A stretch of 63,780 nt of DNA, counting the filler, from Octopus bimaculoides (taxonomy: Eukaryota), in NCBI RefSeq assembly GCF_001194135.2. It is 4 parts of 4 records of this genome, joined end to end, with 100 filler letters (N's around TTAATTAATTAA, not from the genome) between each part and the next. Parts side by side here need not be neighbours in the genome. Positions count along the whole stretch, not along the records: positions 1 to 28,498 come from NC_068982.1; positions 28,599 to 39,270 come from NW_026328969.1; positions 39,371 to 58,962 come from NC_068983.1; 1 more part is not named here. One strand, written 5' to 3'. Made by a program: the position numbers and the translations under genes. Below, piece by piece: positions 1,857-56,712 of the stretch. The notes beneath the pieces are model-generated. The model made no database searches and had not been told where the DNA came from. It saw only the letters and a list, made by a program, of their open reading frames with translations. Within the stretch, counting starts at the first letter, position 1, and every line of letters starts with the position of its first letter.

Positions 1857-4067
1857 CTATCTACTTGCAGTGCTAATAATTATTTCCCAGTGGTGTCGCT
1901 TCCTCTAAAACATATTTGTCACTCAGAAGCGAATCGACAAACATAATTGCTTTCTCAAGCATGATACCGGTCTAGGCTCCCTCAGAATTCAAAATGCATT
2001 GATCATTTCAAAAGATATCATCATGTGATTTGTAATTGTTATGGATTTTCTGAAACTTTGATTGGTTACATTCTGAAGAAGATTTTGATTTAGTAGTAAA
2101 TTGTGTGGACATTGAATTAATAAAAGGAGCACAGCATATTCCCTGATGAAATCTGAAAGCATCTGCATTAGGTTGTTTATGGTCAACATATCAAACTAAT
2201 GTGTCAAGGCAAATCTCGTGTAGTTAAATTTGACTAGATGTAGGAAAGATAAAATATATTTCTACGGAGAATATCTATAGGCACTGACGTATATCTTGCA
2301 CGAACTTTTAAATACATATCTGGATATCGCCCTACGTTTATATGAATGAGAGGAAGCGTATATACATTAACACGAATAACTGTATTTACGGCTCCATACC
2401 ACTTGCACTATTGACAATAGCAAAGTCTAACCTTACAAATCAACCAATATAAGCATATTTATACACACATCTCCATACATGCCTATATGAGGTATATTTG
2501 ATGTATATGATGTGTATATTATGCGTATACAGAAGGGTCGACATACCACACAAAAGAGCGCATACACACAAAAAACACTTGCACACACACACACAACAGT
2601 TTGACACTCCACCGCCTCAAGTAACTTCACTCGTGTGTCCGATGACCTTGATTTAGAGAGTGTATAAAGCATAAGAATGCGGAAAATCGGAGTAGCAGCG
2701 ATTCGGATCATCAACCTTATGCAATTAAAGATTACTTCTTTTATGAAGTACTTTTTTGTGTATTTATTTTTAAATGTGTATATATGTGTGTGTGCGTGCG
2801 TATGAGTTTGTGTGTAGTATTCAAAACAGTTTGATTTGAAATCCGTGTATATGTGTGTATATATATATATATATNNNNNNNNNNNNNNNNNNNNNNNNNN
2901 NNNNNNNNNNNNNNNNNNNNNNNNNNNNNNNNNNNNNNNNNNNNNNNNNNNNNNNNNNNNNNNNNNNNNNNNNNNNNNNNNNNNNNNNNNNNNNNNNNNN
3001 NNNNNNNNNNNNNNNNNNNNNNNNNNNNNNNNNNNNNNNNNNNNNNNNNNNNNNNNNNNNNNNNNNNNNNNNNNNNNNNNNNNNNNNNNNNNNNNNNNNN
3101 NNNNNNNNNNNNNNNNNNNNNNNNNNNNNNNNNNNNNNNNNNNNNNNNNNNNNNNNNNNNNNNNNNNNNNNNNNNNNNNNNNNNNNNNNNNNNNNNNNNN
3201 NNNNNNNATATATATATATATATATATATATAATATGTATGTCCGAATTCGGTTATCCCACCAGCCTGAAGAGACAGGTTCCATTACGAGCTTGTGAAAC
3301 TTGAAGTAGCACGGAATTCGAAAACTGTTTTGAATTCCAAATAAATGTACTAAGTATCCTTTCTTTCGCTTGTCCACTCACTCAGATATATATATACACA
3401 CAAACACACATACATATACGTAGGTATACATACATTCATACATATATAAAGCTCAAAGTTCTTCATCTCCCTCGGGCACATTTTACAACTCAAAAACAGT
3501 AGAGACCAATAGGCAAGTCAGCACCAGTTAGGTATATACAAGAGTGAACAACAAACAACTGTCACCCAGCAGGTATCAGCAGGTAAAACATGTAAGATTT
3601 AAATTCCTCTGACCATGTCTAAAAAGTTCACAACACATGTGTCAAAATACAATTACAGCACCCAACAGGTATCAATCAGTAAAATCAGTTTCACGAAAAC
3701 CACGTACAACACCTACTGCCCTCTCGTCAGTCGTTAGAAAAGTGATCTCACATGACTAAGAGTTATATCGACACTTATTTCTAGCAATGCTGGTGCTGAC
3801 TAGCACCCCCAGTCACTTTAGTAACGAATATACGTATGCATTTTGGTTGTAAATTACGGATAACCAACTTAATAATTTACACACACATATATATGAATAT
3901 ATGTGTATATGTATATGTACATATATATATATATATATACACATATATATATATATATATATNNNNNNNNNNCCAAAAAAGAAAAGACGAAGACTGGTGG
4001 TGTAGACAACAATCATGTATAACAATCATGTATAACAATCATGTATAACGCTCGGGAAGTGAAAAAA

Positions 4068-4104
4068 TCTTTAACGTTTCGAACCTACGCTCTTCCACAG
4101 AAGG
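4068..4104 (-). ncRNA. Minimal hammerhead-like motif (A6U core variant)
   Basis: Minus strand CCTT-CTGTGGA-A-GAGC-gtag-GTTC-GAA-ACGT-T-AAAG. Confidence 0.5.
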
Positions 4105-4199
4105 CCTTAGAATATTGTGTGTACACTGTTCCACTCGCACTTTTAAATATTTTTAAAAGTAGCAAAACTTAATATAGTGTGGTATTTTAATATCTACCA

Positions 4200-5300
4200 C
4201 GTTTATCTTAGGCTATAATTAGTGCATATTTATCAAATTTAAATTGAACTTTTATAGCATATTTTTGATCTCTCACCTTAATATATAATCTTCCTTTGAA
4301 AACTAAAAATTTTAACTTTATCCATGGATGATATATGGTTTTACTTAAATTTCTTCCATATTACATTTGCTATTGCTATTAGTTTAGTGTGTATTTTACT
4401 TAACTTTAATGAATAGGATGTTCTGAAATTACTTAATAGCTTTTAAACCTTTTAAAATTTTAATTCATGCCTGACCCTAAAGGATTCATGTTATTCCATT
4501 GTTGTTATAGTATTATCATTGTTATTTTATGGATGACTCAAATAAATCTAATCCTTGTTCCATTATTATTTTGTACTTTGCCCATGTTAGTTAACACAAG
4601 TTCCTGATAATTTAAGATAGTGCAATCTAATTAAATTAGTACATAATTATCATGTTCTCTATTAACAGTTTAGTTCACCATTATATTCTATGTTAATTCC
4701 AATTATTCATTTTATCAGTTTCTTAAACATTGATGAGTCCATCATTATAAACCATGTTAATCCTATGTATCAATTATTTACATTAGTTATATAATAAATT
4801 TTATCTCTTATGTCTCCTTTAAATGATATTAGATATATAATTTTAATTTTGAAATTTTAGTCCAATATATATAAAAAAATTTTAATTTCACATCTTATCT
4901 ATGGTTCCTTATATTGGTGTAAATAAGTCTAAATGTACTTTACCATAGCATTTTAAATTAATACCACTTCATGGTTTTTGCATACTGCATTAATTGATTA
5001 TTTACATTATCATACACTATTTCTTTTTTATGATTAGCTTTTATTTATTCACATATTAATAAAGCAAATATTGGTATCTCAAGTATTTCAAACTTAACAT
5101 ATCTAAAACAATACTGATACATTATTCTGATTAATGGGAACTATGAATAACCATTTACTGTATCTGTACACAATATAGCAACTTTATTTTATATACTTTT
5201 GACCTAGCTCCATTATAAACTGGTCTGCTAGTAGAGAAAACCCCCCACCTATAGTAGTTTGTCACTAAACCCTAAGAACTTTTATAACTATATCTTCCAT
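4200..5300 (-). mobile_element. Possible heavily eroded CR1-type reverse transcriptase remnant
   Basis: Very AT-rich stretch with faint, correctly ordered echoes of RT motifs on the minus strand. The motifs themselves are largely destroyed. Confidence 0.3.
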
Positions 5301-54238: not shown

Positions 54239-55166
54239 TTCTCTCTCTCTCTCTCTCTGATCTCGGTCGTTCAACGACGAGGATTCAGTTGTTCGATCAA
54301 CTGAGTTACCTGCTCCTGAGTTAATGTGTAAGTGACTGAGATAACCGCAGACATGTATACCCTTGATGCTGTTCGCAGGCAGAATCAGCACAGCAAGGTG
54401 TGTGATGAGGCTGTGTCATTTAAATTACGGGTACAATCTAACCGACGGTCTCCTATGCATTTCCCGTCCACCCAGTTTCACTGACAAGGAATGGGACAAC
54501 CAACATCTATAGAAAATAACATTTGCGCAAGATACCAGACAACGGGATCGAACCTGGAACCTCGTGGGAGCGGAGCGAATTTCTTAACCGTTTCGCTATA
54601 CTGCACCTTCATTCACACACACACACACACACACACACACACACACACACAGAGTCATTCACATAAACACACGCACGTAGTTAATTACAGTGTTGAGGCT
54701 ACTTTGTTGCTACTCCAAGTTTCGCGTTCCATGACGCTTCGCTAAGTATGCAAGAAAAAGCTCTCTGTCTCTCTCCTCTCTCTCTTACTCTATCTGCCAT
54801 TAATTAGCAAAACCTCAGAGAACTAACCTCCATACAAGAAAAATAATAAATTACATGCGCGAGTGCATGTGTGTGTATGACTAAGTATAGGAGTAGGTGA
54901 ACTATATTCGGTTCGCTACCAAGAGGATCCAGGTTCGAGTATCGTTAGGCCCAAGCGAAATCATAGTTATATATATGTATATACATATACATACATATTT
55001 CGTTTTGGTATCTGGTTTGCAAGATTCTTTATGTGAGTTCGTGTATTGAAGTATATTCTGTTGTGTCTGGGGAGAGCCATTTTCTTTTTGTGCCTTATAA
55101 TTTAACACACTCACCGGTAAAATTTCCACTTAATCCTTATTTTTATTTTCCTCTCTTCTGTCTCCT

Positions 55167-55201
55167 GTTTCTGAAGAAGAATTTTTCCTGAAACGTAAAA
55201 C
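55167..55201 (+). ncRNA. Minimal hammerhead-like motif with intact core and damaged stem II
   Basis: GTTT-CTGAAGA-AGAATTTTTCCT-GAA-ACGT-A-AAAC; stem I is GTTT/AAAC and the triplet is GUA. Confidence 0.45.
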
Positions 55202-56624
55202 TAACTTTCTTTCCTTTCCTTAGCGTCTGTTAATGCTTTGCGTGTATCACGTCCTCGCGTTGTTGTTTTTCTCTTCTTGTGCTTTTCTTCGTTTTTTTTT
55301 GGTGGGGGGGATTAATTATATATANNNNNNNNNNNNNNNNNNNNNNNNNNNNNNNNNNNNNNNNNNNNNNNNNNNNNNNNNNNNNNNNNNNNNNNNNNNN
55401 NNNNNNNNNNNNNNNNNNNNNNNNNNNNNNNNNNNNNNNNNNNNNNNNNNNNNNNNNNNNNNNNNNNNNNNNNNNNNNNNNNNNNNNNNNNNNNNNNNNN
55501 NNNNNNNNNNNNNNNNNNNNNNNNNNNNNNNNNNNNNNNNNNNNNNNNNNNNNNNNNNNNNNNNNNNNNNNNNNNNNNNNNNNNNNNNNNNNNNNNNNNN
55601 NNNNNNNNNNNNNNNNNNNNNNNNNNNNNNNNNNNNNNNNNNNNNNNNNNNNNNNNNNNNNNNNNNNNNNNNNNNNNNNNNNNNNCACGGACTGCAAATT
55701 AAATTAAAATTAAAATTAATTCAAATTAAATTTGTAACGTGGAGGAATGTAGTGGCGGACAAAACAAAACAGGAAAACGAAACAGAGAACAAACAAGAAG
55801 GCTATACGGCCTGTTGTTAAATACTCGAAATACGAGACAAGAAAAACAGCCAACAGCTGATGAAGGGTCGTTCTTTATGTTGCTTGTTTTGTTTTCCATT
55901 TGTGTCTTTCGCTGTTCGAAAGAATAGCTCATGTTCCATATACTCGTGCTTCGTACTTTTTTGTTGTACACGTTTCGTGACGTCCTGTGCCTACATATGC
56001 ATAGATATATACGTATAGATGTAAGTATGTACATATACGTATGTATATATGCATATATATATATGTATACACACACACATATATATATACATACATATAT
56101 ATATAAACATTTATATATACATACACACACACACACACATATATATATATATACATATATACATATATATATACANNNNNNNNNNATATATATATATATA
56201 TATATATATATATATATATATAGATATAGAAATGGCAAGACAACAAAAGAATGAGACATCGATATTATGTAAATAGAGGAATTTATCTGTAAATATCATG
56301 TGACAATTACGCGATTACTATGGACATTTTTATCCCCTTACCTTTACTCCCTCCCCTTACCTAGCGGTCATTCTAATAGCTCTTTTGTCTTAATAACGGT
56401 CAATCACACAGTAATTTCCCTTTGTTTTAACGGTCATTTTCATAGCATTTTTTCGATGGTCCCGATATATATCATCATCATCATCATCATTTAACGTTCA
56501 TTTCCCATACTGATATATTTATTAATAATTCGAAGTGTCGTTGGCTCGTCAAGAATAGGCGAAAATGTTTCGTTCTTTTGTTCACTTTCTCGCGCGCGCG
56601 CGTGTTTATATTCCCTTCAATATC

Positions 56625-56712
56625 GGCTACCTCTGATGAGCGTAGAGTTATATAATTGGATTGTTACTTAACACTCTGTTGTATTCTTTACGTGAGACCG
56701 ACTGGTAAGACC
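56625..56712 (+). ncRNA. Degenerate hammerhead-like motif with long stem II
   Basis: GGCTACCT-CTGATGA-GCGTAGAG...CTTTACGT-GAGA(C)CGAC-TGGTAAGACC. Stem II is 8 bp; GAAA has become GAGA and stem III is damaged. Confidence 0.35.

Follow-up and report, generated by a model that had tools for sequence, protein, structure and literature searches.

In a 63,780-nucleotide (nt) stretch of DNA from Octopus bimaculoides (assembly GCF_001194135.2), here called the window, a minimal type I hammerhead-like motif at positions 45096–45146 carries a core in which the bases at positions 3 and 8 are exchanged (G3–C8 for C3–G8) and their pairing is kept. This G3–C8 core is real and is fixed as the majority state of one repeat family, and the repeat itself is very abundant in two organisms. 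Several other hammerhead-like motifs are dispersed over the window, and it is quite probable that the whole set consists of decayed short dispersed repeats, likely coming from the terminal repeats of Penelope-like elements with minimal type I hammerheads, among which the family at 45018–45229 is the one with the swapped pair. The window is made of four parts joined end to end with filler (1–28,498 from NC_068982.1, 28,599–39,270 from NW_026328969.1 and 39,371–58,962 from NC_068983.1 among them), and these parts need not be neighbours in the genome. It is AT-rich, contains 5640 N and has 105 tandem-repeat rows, mainly microsatellites.

Anatomy of the G3–C8 Motif

The motif and the repeat that carries it comprise the following features.

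45096–45146, minus strand: minimal type I hammerhead-like motif with a swapped core pair, the sole strict zero-deviation match in the window
45018–45147, minus strand: part of a high-copy repeat, with the G3–C8 motif at its 5' end on the hammerhead strand (from depth profile, pieces and loose ends)
45147–45229, plus strand: inverted, 5'-truncated piece (the 3' part) of the same repeat, head-to-head with the hammerhead copy (from a 21-nt overlap with 45018–45038, joints and ends at TA runs)

Stem I is formed by 45146–45140 and 45102–45096, with 7 bp in the family majority. The core follows on the minus strand from 45139 to 45133 and reads G3-U4-G5-A6-A7-C8-A9, with G3 at 45139, N7 at 45135, C8 at 45134 and A9 at 45133. 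An extra unpaired base, G at 45132, lies between 9 and 10.1 and leads into a stem II of 5 bp (45131–45127 with 45117–45113) that has the pair G10.1–C11.1. G12 at 45112 is followed by A13 and A14, by the palindrome AAUAUU (45109–45104) and by U17 at 45103, and cleavage is predicted between 45103 and 45102. The motif thus has the letters U4, G5, A6, A9, G12, A13, A14, A15.1, U16.1 and H17 of the minimal hammerhead ribozyme (min-HHR), and lacks its C3 and G8 letters (CUGANGA) both in the window copy and in the family majority. An earlier note on this DNA had related such motifs to the published minimal hammerheads of Penelope-like elements, and the anatomy bears it out: the extra base at 9/10.1, the pair G10.1–C11.1 and the palindromic 15.x–16.x are all described there (Cervera and De la Pena, 2014; PMC4209133). 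The AAUAUU palindrome would give a 6-bp self-duplex of −0.2 kcal/mol, and a 1-bp stem III in the monomer costs 5.4 kcal/mol. Three stem pairs are imperfect in the window copy.

The Family Majority

The family was surveyed with the region 44930–45285, at a likeness of at least 80%, in DNA contigs of two organisms (set X1 from organism A and set X14 from organism B) and in RNA reads of organism A (X21 and X23). Matches were found in 6706 contigs of X1 and 5724 of X14, counts that are not copy numbers, and in 1748 and 1221 RNA reads, nearly all of them on 45018–45229. In the family majority stems I and II are fully paired, all three defects of the window copy being repaired. At 45099 the majority makes a G–C pair in 98% of the DNA depth of both sets, and at 45127 a C–G pair in 96% (X1) and 89% (X14). 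Position 45100 is polymorphic, with U–A in 57% and 59% or U–G in 43% and 41%, and here more than 99% of the DNA depth pairs. The other listed differences within the motif are all minority ones: 45115, 45116 and 45126 belong to two CpG sites, 45123 and an insertion at 45129 are placed in the loop, and 45132 is the extra base; the one at 45115 breaks a stem II pair in 3–6% of the DNA depth and 14–16% of the RNA reads.

Among the 40 of 103 differences listed, none lies at positions 3–9, 12–15.1, the palindrome or 17 (45133–45139 and 45103–45112). Differences with just 10–17% RNA support are listed (45132), and the RNA depth of X21 across the core drops only from 677 to 628 (about 7%) between 45122–45133 and 45134–45145; clipping therefore cannot hide a majority with C3 and G8, and such a hidden majority is not plausible.

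Other Motifs and the Level of Chance

The eight motifs of the earlier note are all present, in the order stem I, core, stem II, GAAA-like segment, short stem III, NH and stem I, and a ninth was found in addition. Apart from the G3–C8 motif they are as follows.

48900–49045, minus strand: family A copy; motif 48994–49030 with core CUGUUGA (U6), perfect 4-bp stem II and U16.1 changed to C (sequence alignment)
49132–49273, plus strand: family A copy, head-to-head with 48900–49045 and with an (AT)n run at its end; motif 49148–49183 with core AUGUCAA (U6, positions 3 and 8 both altered) and palindrome AUAU
4050–4104, minus strand: family A copy; motif 4068–4104 with core CUGUGGA (U6) and palindrome ACGU (sequence alignment)
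55167–55201, plus strand: motif loosely akin to family A (loose alignment); canonical CUGAAGA core, palindrome ACGU, 4-bp stem I, broken stem II
53456–53532, plus strand: the additional motif, a zero-deviation match; canonical CUGAAGA core at 53468–53474, bulged stem II (A10.1–U11.1), near-palindromic C/G-rich stem III, A17 and long stem I
25244–25290, minus strand: minimal motif with two defects (C3 to A, mismatch at 10.1), palindrome ACGU and 5–6 bp of stem I; single in the window (canonical-core scan)
3261–3314, plus strand: motif with intact CUGAAGA core, 8-bp stem II and palindromic stem III with a central G; single in the window
56625–56716, plus strand: larger motif, not of the minimal type; CUGAUGA core intact, long bulged stem II, A14 changed to G (GAGA for GAAA), 3-bp stem III with a 4-nt loop; single in the window

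The quality of the eight is very uneven. Most copies are decayed, as had been claimed, with damage in a stem, the core or the palindrome; at 3261, for example, merely 2 bp of stem I adjoin the core. A bare palindrome as stem III stands for ACGT (4068, 25244 and 55167), ATAT (49148) and AATATT (45096), but it is broken in 48994 and looped in 56625. The motifs had also been assigned to several unrelated flanking repeats; in part, however, these are related, for 4068, 48994 and 49148 form one family (family A, mutual identity 76–84%) to which 55167 is loosely akin. U6 and the extra A are common to all three family A copies, as is a stem II of 4 bp with G10.1–C11.1 as its closing pair, and the damage elsewhere is private. 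The replacement of the A6 of the min-HHR core by U6 is thus found in three of the three copies in the window (two of them perhaps from a single insertion), and family A probably carries the U6 core as its family state. Of the cores described as non-canonical, those of 45096 (G3–C8) and family A (U6) remain so, neither the compensated pair nor the shared U6 having been pointed out in the earlier note, while the change of C3 to A in 25244 and 49148 and that of A14 to G in 56625 are probably private decay. The additional motif at 53456–53532 is the right arm of a 217-nt inverted pair (53329–53545) beside a microsatellite, and its 3' half recurs inverted at 53329–53395.

These sites must be weighed against the possibility that, 45096 and 53468 excepted, most of them fit a loose pattern by chance, in DNA that is rich in AT and in repeats. 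A descriptor with the canonical core (at most one core mismatch, 60 shuffles) recovered one of the eight sites, 25244, with 0.03 matches expected. A relaxed descriptor allowing any Watson–Crick 3:8 pair and at most two deviations, controlled with 40 local dinucleotide shuffles, recovered three of the eight (4068, 45096 and 49148) together with the new site 53468. At this level the window-wide repertoire proposed in the earlier note is not enriched, since 23 matches compare with 24.9 ± 5.5 in the shuffles. In fact, one of the matches, at 13096 on the minus strand and also G3–C8, lies antisense in a Tc1/mariner-like transposase remnant recognized by eye (no Pfam match). Folding energies do not help to separate the motifs from chance either: those of nine motifs were not clearly better than in shuffles (z from +0.06 to −2.08). 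On the other hand, all three related copies of family A have retained their stem II and the spacing of GAAA, 25244 is the sole match of the canonical-core scan, and exact CUGANGA cores are kept in 3261, 55167 and 56625, all of which makes the chance explanation unlikely for most sites. Zero-deviation matches to the relaxed descriptor number two against 0.15 per shuffle (maximum 1 in the 40 shuffles). When a strict palindrome is added, 45096 alone passes, with 0.054 matches per shuffled window, and 0.002 when G10.1–C11.1 is required as well (1000 shuffles each); both odds are post hoc, because the descriptor was widened to any 3:8 pair after 45096 had been seen. The claim of hammerhead-bearing repeat families is supported for at least one high-copy family, whose majority keeps stems I and II, and is not supported for the loose topology, which is not above chance.

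No covariance-model match to the Rfam hammerhead families was found at E ≤ 10 in 44950–45290 or in 53330–53600, and none is among the 150 of 296 Rfam rows listed for the whole window, which are dominated by microsatellite matches to miRNA (microRNA) families. Separately, the core word CUGANGAHG occurs nine times in the window where 3.1 would be expected (a count of nine was reached in 2 of 100 shuffles), for example at 55857–55865, 26759–26767 and 29383–29391, all on the plus strand. Only the word at 55171 lies within a listed motif, and the remaining ones may include further decayed hammerhead halves.

The Putative Repeat Unit and Its Possible Modes of Spread

In other copies of the G3–C8 repeat, opposite-strand joints connect 45018 to 45166–45169, and the two pieces of the window are therefore contiguous there. 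The loose ends share about 15 further bases upstream of stem I and show TA runs after 45229. From these joints and shared loose ends a putative unit of about 210 nt can be drawn, with the hammerhead at its 5' end. In addition, a joint of 45095 to 45147 on opposite strands was observed in one contig of X1 and two of X14, where the strand switches in register with the arms of stem I, as if the motif were inverted.

A unit of this putative length falls within the range of retrozymes, and the family might be a tandem non-LTR (non-long terminal repeat) retrozyme replicating via small circular RNAs. In each of X1 and X14 there is one contig with an opposite-strand joint of 45227 to 45147, as a head-to-tail join would look. 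This joint was, however, not seen in the RNA reads, no motif forms a tandem array in the window, and the retrozymes described in the available text of PMC7229834 have canonical hammerheads with loop–loop contacts, which leaves this explanation improbable. A DNA-mobilised element, either a miniature inverted-repeat transposable element or one derived from a Helitron, with short hairpins that mimic a hammerhead, is a still poorer candidate. A 21-nt inverted repeat does flank the window copy (45018–45038 and 45145–45165), and no linked reverse transcriptase was found in the window. Nevertheless, the two pieces are contiguous and in one direction in other copies, so that the inverted repeat belongs to this insertion and not to the ends of the element; moreover, all core positions and spacings fit a hammerhead, and the U–A/U–G polymorphism in stem I suits RNA pairing.

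The Probable Penelope Link and the Proposed Mechanism

Besides the anatomy, the arrangement of the copies is Penelope-like. Three head-to-head inverted pairs are found in the window (45018–45229, 48900–49273 and 53329–53545), and an inverted, 5'-truncated copy adjoining a terminal repeat, as seen in these three pairs, is known from Penelope-like elements (PMC8557442). Dual hammerhead motifs on opposite strands have also been described in such elements (PMC4209133). Penelope-like elements tend to insert at AT-rich or (TA)n sites; here, of nine ends picked by eye, five have a (TA)5+ run within 110 nt, compared with 12.5% for positions taken at random. In the Octopus vulgaris genome, 6.83% of the sequence consists of Penelope-like elements, in 190 families (PMC13282606, supplement). 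Minimal motifs of this kind in Penelope terminal repeats are inactive as monomers and show weak cleavage as multimers (PMC4209133), and one Penelope-like hammerhead needs the protein of its element, C3G/G8C partly regaining in it the activity lost in each single mutant (PMC11167929).

With this background, the repeats would be terminal-repeat remnants or non-autonomous derivatives. Their source RNAs would have been copied in trans by a Penelope reverse transcriptase and GIY-YIG endonuclease or, alternatively, the repeats may be what 5' truncation has left of full elements. Two motifs of the source element would come together through their AAUAUU palindromes, or fold with the aid of its protein, and a slow cut would follow after U17, the swapped 3:8 pair presumably keeping the geometry of the active site. 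The copies present in the window are most likely inactive and simply carried along within introns. More tentatively, and with somewhat less than even confidence, it can be proposed that one of the most abundant short repeats in octopus genomes has spread with a working G3–C8 hammerhead and a second family with U6. Catalytic cores invisible to standard CUGANGA searches would then be tolerated or even selected in animal retroelements, and many slow ribozymes dependent on a dimer or a protein, so far uncounted, would be present in cephalopod genomes and transcribed within host introns.

Evidence Against a Penelope-Derived Hammerhead Family

Several results weigh against the Penelope origin or against the working of these motifs. 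The relaxed descriptor does not recover five of the eight sites, and the hammerhead is not the minimum-energy structure of the 45096 window copy, as monomer or as dimer. The family-level check was made for one family only, that with G3–C8, and 63 of the 103 differences lie outside those listed; it is the majority state alone that is established at positions 3 and 8. The linked Penelope reading frame envisaged by the earlier note did not appear: no reverse transcriptase or GIY-YIG domain was detected by Pfam in 202 open frames of at least 52 aa in the window, nor in 19 further or repeated frames, and the frame running into the 53468 motif has no homologue (E ≤ 1). The link to Penelope is consequently one of anatomy only, because no linked reverse transcriptase or GIY-YIG was found in the window. 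Pfam matches in these frames are limited to three: the RING of ZNF598, a Pif1 domain and the helix-turn-helix of Mos1; frames of 33–51 aa were read by eye only, over 30–58.5 kb. A frame upstream of 53468 resembles by eye a GIY-YIG C-terminus, but it was rejected as evidence (no homologue at E ≤ 1, no Pfam match).

The remaining points concern RNA. Matches to the G3–C8 repeat amount to about 136 and 106 reads per million, with the two strands about equal, and 88–89% of these reads continue into unlike sequence, a pattern that fits passive transcription inside many host transcripts. No pile-up of read starts or ends was seen on the repeat in the two complementary DNA (cDNA) libraries, nor any depth step at the predicted cut (829, 785 and 755 across 45086–45121 in X21), although libraries of fragmented cDNA, in which decayed copies are pooled, can neither reveal cleavage nor disprove it. 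The motif is spanned in full by reads and by long pieces, and copies have therefore been inserted with the motif uncut. This agrees with the Poseidon element, for which unprocessed RNA is reported as the main insertion substrate and no read ends at the cut site in the available text (PMC11167929).

Two shared continuations of the RNA reads were also noticed. Behind 45148, 117 reads of X21 and 86 of X23 (agreement 0.88 and 0.82) continue, after a short spacer, into an apparent inverted second copy, and these probably come from one well-expressed locus with two head-to-head hammerhead copies. Behind 45222, 159 reads of X21 and 87 of X23 (agreement 0.74 and 0.84) share one continuation that is absent from the window, which suggests a longer subfamily or one abundant transcript.

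Host Genes and Other Elements

Two coding exons, both recognized by protein match, lie head-to-head near the middle of the window.

32448–32618, minus strand: coding exon 1 of ZNF598 (RING), head-to-head with synaptogyrin
33026–33127, plus strand: coding exon 1 of synaptogyrin, with a GT donor directly after it

Their identity to the Octopus vulgaris proteins is 96% for ZNF598 (32618–32448) and 97% for synaptogyrin, and no further exon of either gene was found by tblastn within the window. Barring exons inside N gaps, the motifs from 45096 onward most likely lie within intron 1 of synaptogyrin, and 3261, 4068 and 25244 within intron 1 of ZNF598. The earlier note's placing of motifs in the presumed synaptogyrin intron in both orientations agrees with this, the right-hand sites following exon 1 on either strand. 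That these intronic motifs are domesticated ribozymes regulating synaptogyrin or ZNF598 pre-mRNA is barely credible, for although four motifs are sense to synaptogyrin after exon 1 and two to ZNF598, the best one runs antisense to synaptogyrin, with three stem pairs impaired by comparison with its family, the sense copies are decayed and the motifs occur in both orientations. Both first introns appear to exceed 30 kb. The two start codons are about 400 bases apart, head-to-head (32448–33127), which suggests a shared bidirectional promoter.

The window contains other repeats. A dispersed family resembling short interspersed nuclear elements is present in at least nine copies that are 70–90% alike (7067–7271, 17584–18013, 21413–21493, 31166–31247, 42801–42936, 45293–45524, 47848–48035 and 53753–53921), and a tRNA-like Rfam match lies at 23249–23321 on the minus strand. 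Tc1/mariner-like transposase remnants occur at 12750–13120 (by eye) and 43100–43800 (Mos1 helix-turn-helix at 43155–43340), the latter within long inverted ends (42957–43156 and 43618–43806). A Pif1-like helicase fragment (PF21530) at 38057–38566 on the plus strand is probably a Helitron remnant. At 56890–57470 on the minus strand, the frames have no Pfam match and by eye resemble the 3' end of a CR1/L2-type long interspersed nuclear element. Finally, 59100–63780 is a degenerate satellite of about 4.6 kb made of ACGA/ACGT tetramers, with higher-order repeats and unusually CpG-rich for the window, and 5742–5908 is a 167-nt imperfect palindrome (81%) beside a microsatellite.

Comparison with Known Hammerheads

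As a whole, the repertoire belongs to a known kind, and its non-canonical appearance is in large part due to decay. The general finding is an ordinary one, because Penelope-type repeats with minimal hammerheads have been described since 2014. The min-HHR of metazoan Penelope-like elements (Cervera and De la Pena, 2014; PMC4209133) share with the motifs described here, besides the features of the core and palindrome given above, the type I order and the lack of a real stem III, and they too occur as many families per genome, mainly as single dispersed copies, with opposite-strand pairs 100–700 bp apart. They differ in that the representatives of Fig. S3 of that work have C3 or U3 and A6, none of them G3–C8 or U6. 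The extra base of the 45096 motif is G where their consensus has H, although Nasonia also has G; no cephalopod is listed in the available part of that set, and no linked reading frame is shown in this window. Since its letters at positions 3 and 8 differ, 45096 is a variant, probably a natural ribozyme variant, and not a strict min-HHR member. Non-LTR retrozymes (PMC7229834; bioRxiv 10.64898/2026.07.22.740005), as described in the accessible text, are likewise short non-coding repeats with a type I hammerhead and proposed Penelope derivatives; in contrast to them, tandem arrays are absent from the window and the ribozyme here is minimal rather than canonical.

Natural G3–C8 or A6U cores, or a paper on octopus hammerheads, were not found in the full-text literature, whose coverage left out some key hammerhead surveys that could list such cores. 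The wording "G3–C8" appears once in the texts covered, for an engineered variant (PMC3884650). The motif strings are absent from the supplements of PMC8557442 and PMC13282606, and the word "ribozyme" from the Octopus vulgaris repeat paper (PMC13282606). The patterns of the families gave two matches in metagenomes, in the same GC-rich, bacterial-like context and with no flanking similarity, two in bacterial records among GTDB genomes, where no hammerhead stem II was seen, and 0 and 0 in viral contigs. For position 6, A6C is reported as a natural change (Perreault, 2011; PMC3088659).

The unusual part is therefore a G3–C8 majority core in a high-copy animal repeat common to two related organisms. 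Its nearest natural counterpart is the U3–A8 of Schistosoma Cercyon (PMC4209133; Perreault, 2011, PMC3088659), also a compensated 3:8 change fixed in a repeat family; G3–C8, however, is a double transversion, and the natural 3:8 covariation reported in the available text of PMC3088659 is U3–A8 only. Searches whose descriptor admits only C3/G8 or U3/A8 would thus count too few ribozymes. The same swapped pair has been engineered as C3G/G8C (Poseidon PAc, PMC11167929; PMC8495972; PMC3884650), with cleavage partly restored, but those are laboratory mutants, whereas here the pair forms the majority in a natural family of high copy number. The single-mutant intermediates between C3–G8 and G3–C8 are reported as inactive in the laboratory (PMC11167929). 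That two transversions, passing through such intermediates, have become fixed together with intact stems suggests that the ribozyme fold was under selection as the element retrotransposed, a point that matters for the question whether cutting is required of such motifs. The G3–C8 family also provides a ready natural pair with which the 3:8 base pair can be tested where activity depends on a dimer or a protein.

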